Virus record (IMG/VR): IMGVR_UViG_3300049228_000044
Span: 1 to 39,516 of that record
DNA length: 39,516 nt
From: a virus
Lineage: Duplodnaviria > Caudoviricetes
Reading direction: 5' to 3' (one strand)
Shown one piece after another: positions 928-39,516 of the stretch. A model generated the notes under the pieces. That model was not told the origin of the DNA and searched no databases. It saw only the letters and a list, made by a program, of their open reading frames with translations. The translations under genes were made by a program, and so were the position numbers. Numbering within the stretch: the first letter of the stretch is position 1; every line of letters begins with the position of its first letter.

Positions 928-939
928 CTTACTCTCCTT

Positions 940-1427
940 TAGTGGCTATCCGGCGTCCAGATACAGCCCGTCCCCCGCCGTAGGTGCTACCACAAGCGGA
1001 TAGCAAGGCGTTTGCCTAGATGCTTCATCTTCGTTTCACTACACCTGCCCTGTACCTCTCGGCGGGGGGCCAGCCCGGTCTCCTCCGATGGTTCACCAGC
1101 CTAAAAACTGGATTGGCCTGCCGAGGTCGCATTCATCGCCCGAAGGCAACGGCATTTTCGCGGTGCAGTTATACCTTACCTCACATCAAGGATCGGTGGC
1201 GCGGGGGTGACGCCCGAAGTACATGGCCGTTGACTGGGGTGCCTAGCCAGTTGTGGACTTTCAGCTTTGCCGGAATGAACTCGGCGCGCGCTTTCCATCC
1301 AAGGCAGCTTTTCCAGGGTGATGCGGTCAAACGCCAATTCGAACCGGGCTTGCATTGTCCGATTGATGGCCGTATAAGAGACCTGCAAACCAATCGGGCC
1401 GCATGGGATCACCCTCCTGTGCGGCCC
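940..1427 (-). ncRNA. Putative ~490-nt structured non-coding RNA (candidate replication primer / origin transcript)
   Basis: Gap in an otherwise tightly packed operon, with its own predicted promoter. Many hairpins, including a cUUCGg loop at 1135-1150 and a 9-bp long-range stem 972-980/1060-1068. Confidence 0.5.
1350..1378 (+). promoter_or_regulatory. Antisense sigma70 promoter
   Basis: TTGCAT(1350-1355)-17 bp-TATAAG(1373-1378), opposite to all flanking genes. Confidence 0.7.
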
Positions 1428-1434
1428 AAACTTT
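1384..1434 (+). ncRNA. Putative ~50-nt counter-transcribed antisense RNA
   Basis: Starts just after the antisense promoter and ends in an 8-bp GC hairpin GGGCCGCA(1396-1403)/TGCGGCCC(1420-1427). The following U-tract is weak. Confidence 0.55.
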
Positions 1435-1460
1435 ATGCGCGCGACTGGCGGACTTGTAAA
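1432..1460 (-). promoter_or_regulatory. Putative promoter of the long ncRNA
   Basis: TTTACA(1460-1455)-17 bp-CATAAA(1437-1432). Confidence 0.5.
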
Positions 1461-1499
1461 GCCCCATAGACTTATGACTTTTTCCGATTAGTCTTTGTA

Positions 1500-2087
1500 C
1501 TATGCGTTGATTTGCCGATTTATCGGAACCACGTTGCTTTCCAGCCGCGCCAGCTCGGCCCTCATTTCCAGCGTCTCGGCTTCCCGGCCCAGCTTTTCGT
1601 AAATCGCGATCCGCTTGACCAGCGAAGCAACCTTGTCCGCCTGCGTCACGATCCGCCCGGTATTTGTGCCGTTCGGCCTATGCGATTGCCGGACCCAGTT
1701 GCGCCAGGTCTTTTCCCATGCCAGCTTGACCGCGCCTGCGCCCGATTTGGCCTGCCAGTAGTTCGCGAACAGTTCGGCTTCGGCTTCGGTTTCTTCCGGG
1801 TGCCAGCAACGCTGCGCCATCGCCCATGCTTTCCAGCCTTCGGGCAGTTGCCAGTCGTTCGGCAGCCTGGTCCCGCGCGTCACCTCGCGCTTGGCGATCA
1901 ACGGCGCATGGATGCCTATAGCCGCCATGATCGCGGTGACGTGGCGCACCTCTAACCCGGCGAAATCGGCAAAGGCGGCAACGTGAAACCCCGGCTCGCG
2001 CATTGCGTGCCAGCAATGATAGGCATGGCCGGTCTTGACCTTGGCCTCGCGGGCAATCAGCGGCAGGCGAGGATCGAACGGCGTCAC
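1500..2087 (-). CDS. Phage replication protein with DnaT-like domain
   Basis: RLPNDWQLP...FANYW...K.AWEKTWRNW motif typical of phage replication initiator / DnaT-like ssDNA-binding C-domains; located after rusA. Confidence 0.65.
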   Translation of the reverse strand: MTPFDPRLPLIAREAKVKTGHAYHCWHAMREPGFHVAAFADFAGLEVRHVTAIMAAIGIHAPLIAKREVTRGTRLPNDWQLPEGWKAWAMAQRCWHPEETEAEAELFANYWQAKSGAGAVKLAWEKTWRNWVRQSHRPNGTNTGRIVTQADKVASLVKRIAIYEKLGREAETLEMRAELARLESNVVPINRQINA

Positions 2088-2425: not shown

Positions 2426-2571
2426 GCGCAACTGTCCATCATTTCCGCCTGCGCCGCCAGCCGCCGCACCTCAAGCCGCACGTCGTCCGATGGCACGATA
2501 TGCCCGGCCTCAAGTTCGGCGGCAATCGCCTGCAGGCGTTCGGCTATCTTGCGTAGTGCAGGGGCAATCAT
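2422..2571 (-). CDS. Hypothetical protein (49 aa, MIAPALRKIAERLQAIA...)
   Basis: Fills the gap exactly with ATGA overlaps at both ends. Confidence 0.75.
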   Translation of the reverse strand: MIAPALRKIAERLQAIAAELEAGHIVPSDDVRLEVRRLAAQAEMMDSCA

Positions 2572-3269
2572 TCCGGTTCGTCCTGGGTGGGTGTTTCAAC
2601 CTTGCGCAACGCTTCATAGACAGCCAGCACATAAGGATGCTTCACCGCCCGTTCGTCCCATGTTTTGTAGCTGTGGCAAATTGTGCTGTGGCAACCCTTT
2701 TGCAGCCGCCGCGCAATCGCCGGAAAGCCGGTGCCGTTCTCGCGCATCAGCTTTATCGCCACTGCCCGCGCGTTCAGGTAAAGCGAGGAACGACCTTCGC
2801 CGCGCAGTTCGCGCACCGTGATGTTGAACGCAACCGCAACCGAATGCATGATGTCGCCAGGCAGGGCATGGTTCTCGATAGGCAGCATGTTGGCTTCCAG
2901 AGCGGCTTTCTTGGCCCGCTCGGCATCCTCTAGCGCGGCTTGTGCCAGTCTGGCCTTCCGGCTCCGCGCGGCTTCCTGCGCCGCTGTCCGTTCCGCAAGC
3001 CGGGCATTGTAACAGGTGAGGCACTTTTCCTTGCCGTCGCTGTACTCAAAGGTGTTTTCAGCCGTGCGGATATGCCCGCAATCGAACGGCTTTTCCTTGC
3101 GTCCGACCGGCTTCCAAGCTATCTTTTCGCGCAGTTCCCGGCATTGCTCAAGCGTTGGGGCCTTGCCGAAATAGCCCAGCGTCCGCGCCCGGATCGTGCT
3201 GGGGTCGCTGATGTAGCTGGCGAGGTACTTGGCATAGCTAGCCGGGGTGCTGTAGTCGTAGTCAATCAT
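2568..3269 (-). CDS. Protein with Zn-finger-like segment and C-terminal DnaA domain IV-like HTH
   Basis: CGH...ENT...CLTC, coiled coil, then VAVAFNITVRELRGEGR...AR...G.GFPAIARRL...HSTICH, which resembles Bac_DnaA_C. Confidence 0.8.
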   Translation of the reverse strand: MIDYDYSTPASYAKYLASYISDPSTIRARTLGYFGKAPTLEQCRELREKIAWKPVGRKEKPFDCGHIRTAENTFEYSDGKEKCLTCYNARLAERTAAQEAARSRKARLAQAALEDAERAKKAALEANMLPIENHALPGDIMHSVAVAFNITVRELRGEGRSSLYLNARAVAIKLMRENGTGFPAIARRLQKGCHSTICHSYKTWDERAVKHPYVLAVYEALRKVETPTQDEPE

Positions 3270-3373
3270 GCCAGCGTGATCACGACGGCAACGCCAACCA
3301 TGCCCCAAATCAACAGCATCAGCGAACCGCCGCACACGATACCGCGCCACAGCGCTCTTGCTTCGTCATCCAT
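3266..3373 (-). CDS. Small membrane protein (35 aa)
   Basis: MDDEARALWRGIVCGGSLMLLIWGMVGVAVVITLA; overlaps both neighbours. Confidence 0.6.
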   Translation of the reverse strand: MDDEARALWRGIVCGGSLMLLIWGMVGVAVVITLA

Positions 3374-3572: not shown

Positions 3573-3768
3573 GAACCTTGCTCCTCGCCTTGTGTGTTGC
3601 GTGTCCGCGCCGGGCAGCTTCCGCCCGCGCCTCGCGCACGACCCGTTGCCGGGCGTAACCGGCTTCAAGCTCGCGCTCCAAGGCCGTGCCGTGGATAGCT
3701 GCCTGCCGCTCCGCACGGGCCGCGTTGTGGCGCAGGGCAGCGGGGAGGTGGGGGATGAGGTCGATCAT
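3565..3768 (-). CDS. Hypothetical protein (67 aa)
   Basis: ATGA overlap with the LexA-like gene. Confidence 0.7.
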   Translation of the reverse strand: MIDLIPHLPAALRHNAARAERQAAIHGTALERELEAGYARQRVVREARAEAARRGHATHKARSKVHG

Positions 3769-4031
3769 GCGACACGGATGTGGTAGAGCGGCGCCCCATC
3801 GGGAGCGCGGGGGATGGTAACGGGGGTGAGCAGTTCAATGGCGCGGGCGCGGTTGGGCAAGCGGCGGAGCCAGCCACGCCAGACAAGGCCGTCAATAATG
3901 GCCTGAAATTTATTCAACGAGTTGACGCCGATCACTACCGCCATTTCCCGGAAGCTCGGGCTATAGCCATGCGCTTCCTGATAGCCTGCGATGTAGCGCA
4001 GAAGCTCGGCTTGGCGAGGGGTGGGGGTCAC
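3765..4031 (-). CDS. LexA-like DNA-binding-domain-only protein (88 aa)
   Basis: TPRQAELLRYI...HGYSPSFREMA...GL..RGWLRRLPNRARAIELL matches the LexA N-terminal winged helix. No S24 peptidase domain. GTG start overlaps the upstream stop. Confidence 0.85.
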   Translation of the reverse strand: MTPTPRQAELLRYIAGYQEAHGYSPSFREMAVVIGVNSLNKFQAIIDGLVWRGWLRRLPNRARAIELLTPVTIPRAPDGAPLYHIRVA

Positions 4032-4123
4032 AGGTCGTTGGCCGCGAATGAACGGCGCGGGCAGCGGTGCAGCTCGGTTATGCGGTCCCATGTTTGCAGG
4101 ACGGCGCGGTATATGGCGATCAT
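4028..4123 (-). CDS. Small hypothetical protein (31 aa, MIAIYRAVLQTW...)
   Basis: ATGA and GTGA overlaps on both sides. Confidence 0.55.
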   Translation of the reverse strand: MIAIYRAVLQTWDRITELHRCPRRSFAANDL

Positions 4124-4317
4124 GGCGCTTCAACCTGGCCAGTCAGATAATTGGCCATAAACTCGCGCGCTTTGGCCTCGGTTTCAGGCCAGACCCGTCG
4201 CCCCTTTTCCAACTTGTGAACAAAGGCGGTATCGTTAAGCGCCAGTTCGCCAAAGCGGGTGGGCGGGAGCGAATGCGTATCGCAAAACGCGCGGATATCG
4301 GGGAGAAGCGTTGTCAT
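4120..4317 (-). CDS. Cro-like small HTH regulator (65 aa)
   Basis: LLPDIRAFC...PTRFG.LALND..FV..L..GR......AK...FM pattern of alphaproteobacterial phage Cro-like proteins; first gene left of the divergent switch. Confidence 0.8.
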   Translation of the reverse strand: MTTLLPDIRAFCDTHSLPPTRFGELALNDTAFVHKLEKGRRVWPETEAKAREFMANYLTGQVEAP

Positions 4318-4323
4318 TCCCCT

Positions 4324-4410
4324 TTCGTATATGACGATTTGCCCCGTTGCAAGATTTATTTTGCTTTGATGCAAATTAGCGCTTGCAAAGGTGCAAACTA
4401 TCGGTATTCT
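4324..4410. promoter_or_regulatory. Divergent early promoters with three palindromic operators
   Basis: TTGC-N6-GCAA at 4339-4352, 4361-4374 and 4383-4396. Rightward promoter TTGCAA-16-TATTCT; leftward promoter TTGCAA-17-TACGAA. Confidence 0.85.
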
Positions 4411-4434
4411 GGCTTCACACAAGGAGCAATGCAA

Positions 4435-4629
4435 ATGGAACCCTACCTCCAAATTTCGCAAACGCTGCACCGCCTGAGCGAAGCCGAACAGCTCTCAATC
4501 ATGGTTGCGCTTATCCAAGGTGGCCCCGAGGCCGGTTATCGCAGCGACGCCTTCATTGACGCGCTAATCCCGGTCGATCTGGCGCTTTCCGCCGCATATG
4601 CCGAACTCGACAGCGTGAGCGGAGGTTAG
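4435..4629 (+). CDS. Hypothetical protein (64 aa), first rightward early gene
   Basis: AAGGAG RBS 8 nt before ATG 4435. Confidence 0.75.
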   Translation: MEPYLQISQTLHRLSEAEQLSIMVALIQGGPEAGYRSDAFIDALIPVDLALSAAYAELDSVSGG

Positions 4630-31867: not shown

Positions 31868-33987
31868 TCCGCCAAACTCCCGCCTTCGCGGTTCTGGCTC
31901 AACTTGGCATCGCTTTCACGGTCGCGGCGCTGCTCCGCGTAAACGGCGCGGCTGGCTTCCATCGTCATGCGCCGTTCTTCCAGTTCGGCCTCGCGGTCCA
32001 TGCGCTGCAATTCCAGCGCGTGTTCGCGGTTCATCCTTTCCACCGCCAGTTCGGCTTCAAACTCGGCCTGTTCGCGGGCAAGCTGCTGCTTGAGCATGGC
32101 CTCCTCGCGCGTTGCAGCCAGTTTAGCGGCCTGCGCCTGTTGATCGCCCTGAAGTCTGGCCTGCTGCAGTTGCATTTCAGCCTGAACCTTCATCATTTCC
32201 GGGTCAGGCTTTTGTTCCTGCTGCTGGCCTTCCTGCGGCTCGTTCAGGTATTCGTCGGTGTCTTTGATCCCCGCTGCCGTAAGCTTGCGCTTGACCGCGT
32301 TATAGACCTTGGTTTCATCGACCAGCCCGCCAAATGGCGACTGCGCCAGTTGTTCCATTGTCTCAAGCACACCATCGGCCAAGGCCATCTGTTCGGACTT
32401 GTCGCCAACCCCAAGCCCGACCGAAATAGAAACGTCCATTTCAGGCCAGCCACGCGGGTCCATCGGCACCCATTTGTTGCGCAGGCGGATAACCCGCTCC
32501 TGCTGCTGATGCTTTGTCACAAGCCCCAGGACCAACAGGAACAGCCGTTTCACGCCAGTCTCGGCAAAAATACGCGCGATCATCTCAATCCTGGCATTCT
32601 TGCCGCCCTGGACCATCGCCATTTCCGTAGCAGTCATGCCGCTTTTCTTGAGCGAGTTGCTGTCAAGGCCCTGCCCGGCCCGTGAAACCCCCGTGGTTTC
32701 CTCCACCCGCATGGCGACCATTTCCAGCATCGGCATGGATGCACCGGCGGTGTAGGGCACCGCGTCATAACGTAGTTGGTTGATGTCCCGCACCATAACC
32801 GCAGCGCCGGGCGCGGCATCGGCCAATGTTTCACCGGTCGCACCGTCCGTGCGCATCGCCGCTTCGCCAACTACCGGGCGCGGGTTGTTTGACTTGTACA
32901 GGTTATCGAGCATCTGCCGCCAAAGCACCGTCGAAATACGCTGTTCCTGGACCGTCAAATCGGCCAGCGCCAAGCCATAGACCTTGTGCGGCATCGGGAT
33001 TGGGCAAACCCCGGCAAAGGCGTTCTCCTCTGTTTCCTCGTTCAACAGGATCGTGTCGCCAACCCGCATCACCCGGCGAAGCTCCGCCACCCCATCACCG
33101 TCATAATCGACCCGGATATATTCATCGCGCAGCGCCATAATGTCCTGCGACCTATGGGCGGAAAGCTGCATATTCTGGTCAAACGACTGGTCCGAATAGC
33201 GCGCATCGCGAAGGGTACTGTTTTCCTCGTTCGCGCTCGCAGGCAGGTTCTCGACGATCTCCGCGTCGAAACCCATTTCAATGAGGTCGCTACGGGTGAC
33301 GTTGTTAGGCACATGCGCACAATACGGCGCGTCCTTGATCGAGCGGGCGAGCGGGGAAATGCGAAACTCCTCCGGCGGCACGTTGCAAATCTTGACCCGC
33401 CCGTCATAGACCATGCGGCCAATGTAGAACACCCCGTTCTCTTCACCCAGATACTCAGGCGACTGGCGTAGGTAAGCGGCCTGCATGTCGTCCTGCGGCA
33501 TCACTTCCTGCTTATCGAGGCGCTGGTTATCCTCCCACCACACCTTCACAACCCCGAGCTTGGTAAGCAGCCCGTCCTTGAACCAGTCATGCAGGATCAA
33601 AAAGCCATGGTTGTCGCAGTTGAAAATGTAGTTCACATATTCCGTTGCCTGTTCGGCGAAGTCTATGTCTTCCTCGCTCCGAGGCGCAAAGCGCACGGTT
33701 TCATCACTTGAGACAAACGGCTTGAGGACCGCCGCCAAAGCATTATCGACCACCAGCGCGACTGTCCCATCAACCACCGAGGAAGTGCCCTCAGCGGCGG
33801 GGACATCGGCCATGACGCGGTTGTAATAGTTGAGCGCCTGCTCTTGCTGCGCGGTTACGTCATCACTGCCGCCCGCCTGATAGCCGATTGCCTGGCTGGC
33901 ATGGGCGCCAAGGATCGAGGTCAGTTCCTCGTCGGGCATGGCTTCGCCGTCCGGATCTTCCTCAAACATGGCGGGTTGCGTTGCCAT
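31864..33987 (-). CDS. Portal protein (P22-like)
   Basis: AEQATEYVNYIF...DGLL.K.GVVKVWW...VPPEEF.I...D.DGDG.AELR...RQMLDNLY..NNP motifs and Gln-rich C-terminal barrel. Confidence 0.92.
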   Translation of the reverse strand: MATQPAMFEEDPDGEAMPDEELTSILGAHASQAIGYQAGGSDDVTAQQEQALNYYNRVMADVPAAEGTSSVVDGTVALVVDNALAAVLKPFVSSDETVRFAPRSEEDIDFAEQATEYVNYIFNCDNHGFLILHDWFKDGLLTKLGVVKVWWEDNQRLDKQEVMPQDDMQAAYLRQSPEYLGEENGVFYIGRMVYDGRVKICNVPPEEFRISPLARSIKDAPYCAHVPNNVTRSDLIEMGFDAEIVENLPASANEENSTLRDARYSDQSFDQNMQLSAHRSQDIMALRDEYIRVDYDGDGVAELRRVMRVGDTILLNEETEENAFAGVCPIPMPHKVYGLALADLTVQEQRISTVLWRQMLDNLYKSNNPRPVVGEAAMRTDGATGETLADAAPGAAVMVRDINQLRYDAVPYTAGASMPMLEMVAMRVEETTGVSRAGQGLDSNSLKKSGMTATEMAMVQGGKNARIEMIARIFAETGVKRLFLLVLGLVTKHQQQERVIRLRNKWVPMDPRGWPEMDVSISVGLGVGDKSEQMALADGVLETMEQLAQSPFGGLVDETKVYNAVKRKLTAAGIKDTDEYLNEPQEGQQQEQKPDPEMMKVQAEMQLQQARLQGDQQAQAAKLAATREEAMLKQQLAREQAEFEAELAVERMNREHALELQRMDREAELEERRMTMEASRAVYAEQRRDRESDAKLSQNREGGSLAE

Positions 33988-34505
33988 CAATGCCTCGCAG
34001 GCTTGTGCGCCTGAAGCGCAAACTTGAAGCTGCCGTTGTCGGTTTCACCGGCCATGATTTCAAAATCCCCATGCCAGAGCCAACGGAAGTCCGTCATCGC
34101 CGTTTTCCCGATTTGCTTGACGTATTCGGTCTGGTCCAGAAACACCAATGTGCCCCGCGTGATGATCCGCCGGTGCGACGGGTCAGACCATGCCCAGATG
34201 TCATCCCATGCCGGAACGGTCGCAAACAACATGCCGCCCGGCTTCAGCACCCGATAAATCTCCGCGAACTGCGCGAAGAATGCCTTGTAATCGCCCTGTT
34301 CCCCAAGATGTTCCAGCACCTCGTAAGCGTGGACCTCATCGAAACTGTCCGCATCGACCGGCCAAGGCAGGCTTTCCAGGTCATGCACAATGTCCGCGCC
34401 GCAGTTGGGATCATGGTCCAGTGTAACCAGCCTGTCCCATTCCTGTCCGCCAAACGATAGCTTTTTGATCCGGCGATTGCCGCAGCCTATCAGGAGTTCA
34501 GGCAA
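33987..34505 (-). CDS. Class I SAM-dependent methyltransferase
   Basis: LIGCG motif I, D..HDL..LPWP...DSFDEV.A.EVLEHL, EIYRVLKPGG, DP.H motifs. Confidence 0.9.
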   Translation of the reverse strand: MPELLIGCGNRRIKKLSFGGQEWDRLVTLDHDPNCGADIVHDLESLPWPVDADSFDEVHAYEVLEHLGEQGDYKAFFAQFAEIYRVLKPGGMLFATVPAWDDIWAWSDPSHRRIITRGTLVFLDQTEYVKQIGKTAMTDFRWLWHGDFEIMAGETDNGSFKFALQAHKPARH

Positions 34506-34768
34506 GCGGCCATTTCCTCAAGCCCATGCTGCAATGGGCAAAGCCGGATTGCTTCCCACTTGTCCGGGTGCGACTTCTTGAAGGCCTCAGCGATCTCGCC
34601 AAGCAGGTTCGCGTCAAACGCATCCTCATACTTGCGCTCGGTTTTGACAATCTCTGCCTGGGTGACAGTTTTTGACGCCCCCTTAGCGGCCTGCCGCTCG
34701 GCTTCGCTGCCCTGCATCAATGCGGCATAACTCTGCCCCTCAAGCGGTACTTTGCGCGGCCTACCCAT
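34490..34768 (-). CDS. Hypothetical protein (92 aa, MGRPRK AT-hook-like start)
   Basis: GAGG RBS; lies between the radical SAM and methyltransferase genes. Confidence 0.7.
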   Translation of the reverse strand: MGRPRKVPLEGQSYAALMQGSEAERQAAKGASKTVTQAEIVKTERKYEDAFDANLLGEIAEAFKKSHPDKWEAIRLCPLQHGLEEMAACLNS

Positions 34769-34776
34769 GCTTCACC

Positions 34777-35616
34777 TCAATAGTTGCACGTGGAACAAGG
34801 GCTGATACCAAGCCGCGAGAGGTTCCTCACCCGTCGATCCCGATAACCCTTGCCGTTGTAAATCTCAAACAGCGTCTGCTCGTTCAGGTCGCCAATCGAA
34901 TGCTCGGCCTCGCCATCCATACAACACAGCGCCACCTTGCCGGTTGCCGTGATGCTCAGTTCATACCAGCGCGAACACGGCGCAATAGGGATAGGCGCGT
35001 CCCTGCCCTTCACATGGTCAATCCAGCTATCACGCTTGACCAGCTGCACGGTGAACAGCGGCCATCGGCGATGCACGTACTCCCTAAACTCCGCGTCGTC
35101 CCTGCCGTCCAGCGAACAAACCCGGCTTATCACCACCTTATGCCCAAAGCCGCCAGTTGCGACCAACTTGTGCAGCATATCCAGGTTGCCAGCCGTCCGG
35201 TCGAAGTCCAGCGACATCGTTTCCCGGTATTTGTCGGCGTCGTGCTCGTTCAGGCTTATCCAGAGGTGCAGCACCCGTTCAAGTTGTGCCACTTCGCCCA
35301 AATGCCGGGCCGTGAGCGCCGATCCGTTCGTGAACAGCCTCAGGTGTGCTTTCGGCAATTCAGCGTTGATACGGCGGCACAGTGGCAACAGGCGCTTGTC
35401 CAGAAACGGCTCATTAACCTTGAACGGTGAAATAACGAAAGGCCGGGGATGGTCCTTTAGCTCCTCAATGATCCGGTCAATCATCGCGTCCGGCATTCGC
35501 ACCCCTTGCCGGTCTAGCGTAGGATACGGGCAGAACACACAAGCCGCGTTACACTTGGCATAGGTTTCGATGCTGATTTCGTGCGGCCAGTCCAGATATG
35601 TCTCGCGCAGGTTCAT
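34777..35616 (-). CDS. Radical SAM protein with SPASM/twitch domain
   Basis: CNAACVFC (CxxxCxxC), NEPFLD, TNG; C-terminal PC...G.VALCC.D...IGDL...L.EIYNG...PCSTC. Confidence 0.92.
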   Translation of the reverse strand: MNLRETYLDWPHEISIETYAKCNAACVFCPYPTLDRQGVRMPDAMIDRIIEELKDHPRPFVISPFKVNEPFLDKRLLPLCRRINAELPKAHLRLFTNGSALTARHLGEVAQLERVLHLWISLNEHDADKYRETMSLDFDRTAGNLDMLHKLVATGGFGHKVVISRVCSLDGRDDAEFREYVHRRWPLFTVQLVKRDSWIDHVKGRDAPIPIAPCSRWYELSITATGKVALCCMDGEAEHSIGDLNEQTLFEIYNGKGYRDRRVRNLSRLGISPCSTCNY

Positions 35617-39002: not shown

Positions 39003-39516
39003 TTAAGTCCTTTCCACTGCAAACTTGAGAATTTCCGGGGGCAAGCCGCCGTGTAGCACGGATTGCGCTTCGTCCACGGTCTTTGTGCCGGGCGGCACGG
39101 GAAGCGCAAAGCGCCTGTTTGTCCCGCATAGGGCGTCAAGAAAGCGCTCGCGCCCGCTGTCGGGTAAATCCACCTCTACCAATCGGCCCCATACCGGATC
39201 GCCGCTGTCTTCAATGGTTTTCGCGGAAAGCTGATCAAGGATGTTCGCCCAACCGACAATTTCGCAAGCCGCCGCGCGTTGGTCCATATTGGGCCAATGC
39301 AGCGCTTCGGCAGCGCTAGGCGGCTTTCCGGTAGTCCAGTCGTTCGGGATGGTTTGACCGTGCCATGCGGATAGTCCGTAGCCATCGGCATAGGCAACGG
39401 CAAGCCCGGCCTCACTGTGTAACCTGCGTTCATCATCCCACTTGACCAGAACCGGGCGCTGCGATGCCACAACGATATTCTTATACGGCCACCACCACTC
39501 GCACTGCGTCGAAATG
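39003..39516 (-). CDS. DUF6745-like protein, C-terminal part (enters from window end)
   Basis: Frame is open to the window edge: ISTQCEWWWPYKNIVVASQRP...RLHSEAGLAVAYADGY...WHG...CGT.R.FAL.VPP. Confidence 0.85.
   Translation of the reverse strand, partial: ISTQCEWWWPYKNIVVASQRPVLVKWDDERRLHSEAGLAVAYADGYGLSAWHGQTIPNDWTTGKPPSAAEALHWPNMDQRAAACEIVGWANILDQLSAKTIEDSGDPVWGRLVEVDLPDSGRERFLDALCGTNRRFALPVPPGTKTVDEAQSVLHGGLPPEILKFAVERT

Follow-up and report, generated by a model that had tools for sequence, protein, structure and literature searches.

A conserved, folded non-coding element with predicted antisense control in phages and defence islands of alphaproteobacteria, possibly an RNA-primed replication origin

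Judged from sequence comparison, the gap at the element locus of the window (the whole stretch of 39,516 nucleotides analysed here) belongs to an uncatalogued family of conserved, folded non-coding elements of ~480 bases, which occur in alphaproteobacterial phages and small defence islands. We regard it as a genuine and new family of structured RNAs under conserved antisense control; on our best reading it works like a ColE1 replicon, but it is not demonstrably a ColE1 member. We consider the chances about even that the element is a protein-independent, RNA-primed replication origin, in which the long RNA would serve as primer for DNA synthesis and would be shut down by a short antisense RNA. 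The parts of the element and the flanking genes are as follows.

950–1427, − strand: long structured non-coding element, ~480 nt, a predicted RNA with inferred ends; 30 full-length copies plus two island copies
1432–1460, − strand: predicted sigma-70 promoter of the long RNA, TTTACA-17-CATAAA (sequence motif)
1396–1427, no strand assigned: 5′ hairpin, the predicted antisense RNA target, conserved in shape and variable in sequence; z below −2 in 29 of 30 copies
1350–1378, + strand: antisense promoter TTG-N3-17-TA, in the window TTGCAT-17-TATAAG; conserved in 27 of 30 copies
1385–1435, + strand: predicted antisense RNA, ~50 nt, one hairpin and a weak T tail; fold z −5.77
1255–1345, − strand: conserved 5′ domain with near-invariant motifs TTGGCG ... 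AAAAGCTGCCTT (alignments and consensus fold)
1202–1207, − strand: C-rich loop, 5′ side of a pseudoknot, predicted partner of the 3′ G-rich tract (co-varying pairing)
972–977, − strand: 3′ G-rich tract, 3′ side of the pseudoknot, 7–12 nt ahead of the last conserved motif (959–965)
1030–1225, − strand: core of nested long-range helices, with 95–98% identity in short contigs from other samples
748–927, − strand: small ORF 3′ of the element and outside its conserved part, without a family match; the 3′ genes vary among copies
1500–2087, − strand: short replication-initiator-like gene, encoding an N-terminal HTH-like domain and then a domain common to phage primosomal/initiator families; no iteron array

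The first-pass annotation had placed both promoters and three stems (1396–1403/1420–1427, 1359–1365/1391–1397 and 972–980/1060–1068) in the gap, and all were found at those positions. Neither promoter passes a strict scan with the E. coli consensus. Both are without the last T of the −10 box, as is common in alphaproteobacterial promoters, and a motif resembling the long-RNA promoter was found with an ad hoc pattern at the equivalent position in 14 of the 30 copies. The whole gap folded as a single sequence no better than its shuffles (z −0.07), and the proposed comparison with Rfam (RNAI, ctRNA and large phage ncRNAs) gave no match at E values up to 10. Because the single-sequence fold, the strict promoter scan and Rfam gave nothing, the case rests on homologs. 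The evidence that the gap is structured comes from covariation among homologs and from the 5′ hairpin, not from the single-sequence fold. Short contigs within 1053–1208 were found in three metatranscriptome runs picked by words from the window; such contigs cannot show transcription and were left out of the evidence count.

The first copies were reached via relatives of the protein encoded at 1500–2087. DNA pattern searches, with true loci judged by profile, then yielded 9 of 12, 7 of 55, 4 of 9 and 27 of 77 matches; the remaining 3, 48, 5 and 50, L095 among them, were discarded as chance. Excluding near-duplicates and partial copies (<70% of the model), 32 distinct copies are known, namely 30 aligned full-length copies including that of the window and two from genome searches. 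The mean identity among the aligned copies is ~51% (range 36–94%). Genome searches, which used a sequence-only model, found the element in 3 of the 151 Sphingomonadaceae genomes and, at the level of the order, in 2 of 401, the centre genome being counted in both; a class-level search added nothing credible. Carriers include Sphingorhabdus sp. 109 (locus L102) and the genomes G025 and G127. Searches of family members by blastn against INPHARED phages, PLSDB and E. coli genomes returned chance-level or no matches; in particular, no PLSDB plasmid matched the three members searched. The 3′ half is of one type in 25 copies and of another in five (L002, L006, L199, L212 and L235), which keep the 5′ domain and the 3′ end common to both types while the middle and 3′ half differ, indicating module swapping. 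L001 has only the 5′ control module, placed on an unrelated non-coding body of ~400 nt after four tRNA genes (3690–4560), possibly a third RNA type. No published description of the family was found among the articles searched, though the supplementary motif tables of RNA surveys could contain it; the available portion of bioRxiv 10.64898/2026.09.22.753630 deals with other RNAs.

The antisense promoter proposed at the 5′ end of the long transcript is conserved among the homologs. Specifically, the spacing from the −35 TTG to a TA is exactly 17 nt in 27 of the 30 copies; one copy has a spacing of 18 nt and no copy one of 16 nt, and the spacer sequence is variable. TTG served as the anchor of this count and is hence not independent of it. 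A strong hairpin (z below −2) is predicted in the antisense RNA of every copy but L102, an island copy. The T-rich tail (five or more of nine) occurs in 17 of 30 copies, the window having four of nine. The hairpin sequence differs from phage to phage, as it does in specificity elements, a role that it may share.

The covariation check suggested at the outset was carried out on the 25 main-type copies, with the five copies of differing 3′ half omitted; 20 alignments simulated on a tree served as the null. Four column pairs outscored every null pair, all four being 92–100% canonical, and seven of the top nine covarying pairs are canonical. The compensatory changes support the long-range helices and, more weakly, the pseudoknot. 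Taken together, the pairs outline nested long-range helices that span ~100–170 nt, hairpins inside them and two predicted pseudoknots. In a separate 21-sequence alignment, the proportion of paired cells was 88%, compared with 75% for shuffles and 37–52% for slid controls, and two-sided changes numbered 108 versus 37. These counts are supportive and not independent, because the structure was derived from overlapping sequences, and helix 5 of the eight is out of register in this alignment (29% paired). The pairing of the loop at 1202–1207 with the 3′ tract occurs in three co-varying forms across subtypes (CACCCG/CGGGTG, CTTTCCG/CGGAAAG and CCCCCG/CGGGGG). As helix 3, this pairing is 86% paired with two-sided changes in two of six pairs, and its single pairs fall below significance in the tree-based test. 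The 9-bp stem said to close on the 3′ G-run is present (972–980/1060–1068) but was seen only in the subtype of the window, the family-wide partner being the loop at ~1202–1207. The counts of G-U against A-C (39 versus 33) give no strand signal; we infer the direction of the element from its promoters.

The window is a whole phage record of 39.5 kb with a CheckV completeness of 85%. Profile scans identified terminase, portal, capsid, ERF, exonuclease and RusA genes, and the presence of relatives in Sphingorhabdus and Sphingopyxis genomes points to an alphaproteobacterial host. Positions 2–313 and 39003–39515 (− strand) hold the apparent halves of one gene, split at a short tandem repeat and with DUF6745 at the right end, which suggests a circular, nearly complete genome. 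Between terminase and portal, the ORFs at 33987–35616 (− strand) resemble by eye a radical-SAM protein and a methyltransferase, possibly with a role in virion or DNA modification. At 2568–3350 (− strand), in the operon of the initiator-like gene, an ORF encodes the C-terminal HTH domain of DnaA (PF08299, E 6e-11). A contig from run X1 skips positions 748–931 and indicates that a deletion variant or a relative coexists. No tRNA or tmRNA was detected in the window, and GC skew is uninformative, with no switch at the element locus. Profile searches found no polymerase, primase or helicase among the ORFs scanned, a six-frame search found no DnaB domain, and the initiator-like gene has no iteron array. 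The phage is not free of a candidate initiator, because the product of the adjacent gene is a short protein of the replication-initiator type.

This protein matched PHROG 3992 (E 4.7e-14) and PHROG 1408 (E 1.1e-11), and PHROG primosomal/initiator profiles cover its residues 67–142; Pfam DnaT gave no match. Its predicted model (pLDDT 88) showed weak HTH fold matches at residues 3–67 (best VIA-align Z 7.0, HTH-like only) and no Foldseek match at E 0.001, with the middle domain barely covered in either comparison. A single-sequence model of the middle domain (pLDDT 47) was unusable. Ten of the 30 copies lie 3′ of a window-type initiator gene on the same strand, eight of them within 60 nt of the extracted region, and the whole element is directly downstream of the initiator in three of four full-length IMG/VR relatives. 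The shared C-terminal domain occurs in 48 further phage records, none of which carries the 3′ core of the element, although that core was detected in the positive control. These counts do not support an obligatory link to the DnaT-like gene.

The remaining contexts are diverse. Among the 146 of 244 flanking ORFs scanned, the element is often placed among ERF, SSB, exonuclease and RusA genes; in other copies it follows lysis genes, precedes terminase or faces a repressor gene. The genes 3′ of it are unrelated among copies (ERF, PAPS reductase, terminase and small ORFs), and in L088 and L104 the following long ORF is on the opposite strand, encoding a repressor in L104. No downstream gene is conserved, in agreement with the expectation that no rep gene follows the element. 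Eight other near-complete records were compared using ORFs of 185 aa or more, G008 having only the 5′ module. Three encode initiators of the window type and have no iteron array, G001 and G004 combine O-like initiators with such arrays, one encodes an O/DnaD-like initiator without an array, and one only an SF2 helicase. G003 has an initiator plus primase-helicase at a distance of ~18 kb from the element. An initiator is also present in the G012 prophage, and in most carrier phages one is encoded away from the element. All five window-type initiators checked are without iteron arrays. Because some carriers have iteron-bearing initiators or a primase-helicase, the element is not the sole origin in every carrier. 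A DnaB-type helicase is absent from 8 of 9 carriers (window included) and from 28 of 36 controls, and the argument from a missing helicase carries little weight because the absence is equally common in non-carriers.

Island copies provide the best indirect evidence of a priming role, by analogy of gene order at three loci, one of which is cut by a contig end. In G011, G127 and G429, an integrase is followed by an unrelated ORF of 244–290 aa, an HTH_17 excisionase and the RNA body, which starts past the control module, so that the 5′ antisense control part is missing. The intervening ORF matched no named family. The G127 island (L287, 7755–16430) is 8.6 kb long, lies between att repeats at a tRNA-Arg gene and carries restriction-modification and PDC-S31-like cargo; no replication gene or primase was found among its ORFs scanned. 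G011 (L102) carries an Avs4-like gene, its island ends not being found, and the G429 island is cut by the contig end. At that end (L282, ~1935–2140), the RNA body is immediately followed by a ~33-bp repeat that contains a palindrome and is present at least four times; this array is either iteron-like or an assembly break. PICMI satellites are described with the order integrase, variable ORF (iolg), AlpA, primase and cargo, and primase deletion lowers their copy number (PMC10803314, in the part available). The sphingomonad islands resemble them in being small and integrated and in combining an integrase, a variable ORF, an HTH_17/AlpA excisionase and defence cargo. In these island copies, integrase and alpA/HTH_17 are colocalised as in PICMIs but the mandatory primase was not found. 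Since the fourth place is held by the primase in PICMIs and by the RNA body in the islands, the RNA would occupy the primase slot; the missing primase refers to the ORFs scanned in G127, and G429 is truncated. The islands also differ from PICMIs in their sphingomonad hosts, in the tRNA integration site (G127) and in having no known helper phage.

As defined in the accessible text of PMC8683028, ColE1 replicons make a long RNA whose 5′ end is overlapped by an antisense RNA, and they require no Rep gene; the known examples given there are plasmids of five gammaproteobacterial orders. The layout claimed in the first-pass annotation agrees with this definition in the long structured element, the conserved 5′ antisense promoter and the lack of a conserved downstream rep gene. 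The likeness extends to a similar-sized long RNA, a 5′ overlapping antisense RNA predicted from its promoter (27 of 30) and hairpin (29 of 30), own predicted promoters and a G-rich tract just before the conserved 3′ end. However, the element is ~480 nt rather than ~550 nt long, and its predicted antisense RNA of ~50 nt has one hairpin, whereas RNA I has ~100 nt and two or three stem-loops; an antisense RNA of the RNAI model was not found, nor an Rfam match to one. Where ColE1 has an upstream G-run, the element has a C-rich loop with complementarity to its 3′ tract, and the carriers are alphaproteobacterial phages and islands instead of gammaproteobacterial plasmids.

The origin-proximal ColE1 sequence quoted in the first-pass annotation was found in record NC_001371. 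Robust sequence kinship to ColE1 was not recovered by any approach, the HMM, profile, motif-chain and profile-profile tests staying at shuffle or control level. The family HMM had no match to ColE1, profile scores against it gave z −0.6, −1.7 and +1.2, and reciprocal HMMs of eight enterobacterial origins and six other plasmid records gave no same-strand match at the origin. Profile-profile comparison of six subgroups remained at shuffle level. Mean pairwise scores reached z 2–3 for 4 of 11 origins, mostly near strand controls. Two candidate signals were rejected: a motif order resembling ColE1 RNA II, spotted by eye, failed statistically (motif chain z at most 1.1), and a permissive profile-profile setting gave z 3–4 with the reversed control scoring nearly as high. 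A very remote homology may still exist, as the enterobacterial HMM also misses the Pasteurella origins. Because no robust sequence homology to ColE1-type origins was obtained, the element is not filed as a member.

In repABC plasmids (ctRNA) and further rep leaders under antisense control, the antisense RNA is a single hairpin of ~50–60 nt. The one predicted for the element, of ~50 nt, is alike in this respect, but the element is without a conserved downstream rep gene and without an Rfam match. GOLLD, ROOL and ARRPOF are large structured phage and plasmid RNAs, ARRPOF being located in a region of rep-independent replication (PMC5737381, in the part available). The element is likewise large, richly paired and located on mobile elements; it differs in its conserved antisense promoter and in matching none of the Rfam models at E up to 10.

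If the element is an RNA-primed origin, the long RNA would be transcribed from ~1427, and its fold would let the G-rich 3′ end (~960–980) stay hybridised to the template. The primer would then be processed and extended by host enzymes; in ColE1 these are RNase H and Pol I. Helicase loading might proceed via the host restart pathway, perhaps aided by the short initiator encoded at 1500–2087. Pairing of the ~50-nt antisense RNA with the 5′ hairpin would inhibit priming, and the variable hairpin sequence would make this control phage-specific. The element could serve as a second origin in phages with an iteron origin, and in islands, where the 5′ control part is absent, it would be transcribed from the integrase-excisionase operon. 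We favour this mechanism because the layout fits the ColE1 definition, no downstream gene is conserved and the nearest long ORF faces the opposite way in some copies, the island RNA body fills the PICMI primase slot with no replication gene found in G127, window-type initiators lack iteron arrays, and copies often sit among ERF, SSB, exonuclease and RusA genes. Against it we count the iteron-bearing initiators of G001 and G004, the G003 primase-helicase and the G012 initiator; the lack of ColE1 similarity, of a PLSDB match, of a G-U strand signal and of a GC-skew switch; the DnaB absence shared with controls; the truncation of G429 and the missing ends of G011; and, in many copies, a leader-like ribosome site and start codon ~10–40 nt past the 3′ end. 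In summary, the structured element, the antisense promoter, the layout and the island contexts speak for the antisense-controlled RNA-primed origin of the first-pass annotation, while sequence kinship to ColE1, an obligatory DnaT-gene link and the argument from a missing helicase are not supported.

The ribosome sites belong to an explanation that we regard as unlikely though worth weighing, namely an antisense-controlled leader, a structured 5′ region setting termination, antitermination or translation of the following genes, as in phage immunity leaders and antisense-controlled rep leaders. It is in keeping with the position of the 3′ side of the pseudoknot shortly upstream of the ribosome site and start codon and with the RNA body preceding defence cargo in islands; the genes to be controlled are, however, unrelated among copies, oppositely oriented in L088 and L104, and missing next to the element in a variant of the window phage. 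We assign a similarly low probability to a free-standing functional RNA, either ribozyme-like, protein-binding or a toxic RNA checked by an antisense antitoxin, comparable to GOLLD/ROOL and other large phage RNAs of unknown role. Nested long-range helices and two predicted pseudoknots with invariant bases would suit such an RNA, as would the unconstrained position in phage genomes and the transfer of the 5′ control module to a different body after the tRNA cluster of L001. Yet no obvious terminator was seen by eye past the conserved 3′ end, Rfam offers no ribozyme or large-RNA match, and the antisense module that a toxin requires is lacking in island copies.

Less probable still is a structure of single-stranded DNA (a lagging-strand start, primosome assembly site, or packaging or transfer signal), with transcription merely opening the DNA. 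This agrees with the lack of G-U bias and with SSB and annealing proteins among the neighbours, and structure-finding methods also recover ssDNA motifs (PMC5737381, in the part available); two convergent conserved promoters and the terminator-like antisense hairpin point instead to control at the RNA level. Type I toxin-antitoxin systems also consist of a long RNA and a 5′ antisense RNA, and this shared layout is what speaks for a toxin-antitoxin or other small-protein locus, e.g. ORF 1176–1412. The coding tests largely refute it and leave it very improbable. ORF 1176–1412, a potential conserved protein in the gap, is not conserved among copies, no ORF is shared across them (the commonest stop bin holds 11 of 30), and no hydrophobic ORF exceeds a mean hydropathy of 1.5. 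In addition, only 23 of 127 indels keep the frame and conservation shows no codon period.

Should the priming role prove false, what would still stand is a ~480-nt RNA family missing from the catalogues, whose complex fold is supported by covariation and whose antisense control is built in. Antisense-controlled RNA priming is the textbook mechanism of gammaproteobacterial ColE1-type plasmids. Somewhat short of even likelihood, in our estimate, is the wider proposal that RNA-primed origins under antisense control evolved independently a second time, in a class used by alphaproteobacterial phages and by primase-less satellites, where a folded RNA would replace the replication protein. The swappable 5′ hairpin/antisense pair of this class would serve as a code for incompatibility or immunity. 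If true, RNA priming would also operate in alphaproteobacterial phages and in defence satellites without any replication protein, and the family would offer compact, tunable and mutually compatible origins for sphingomonads.
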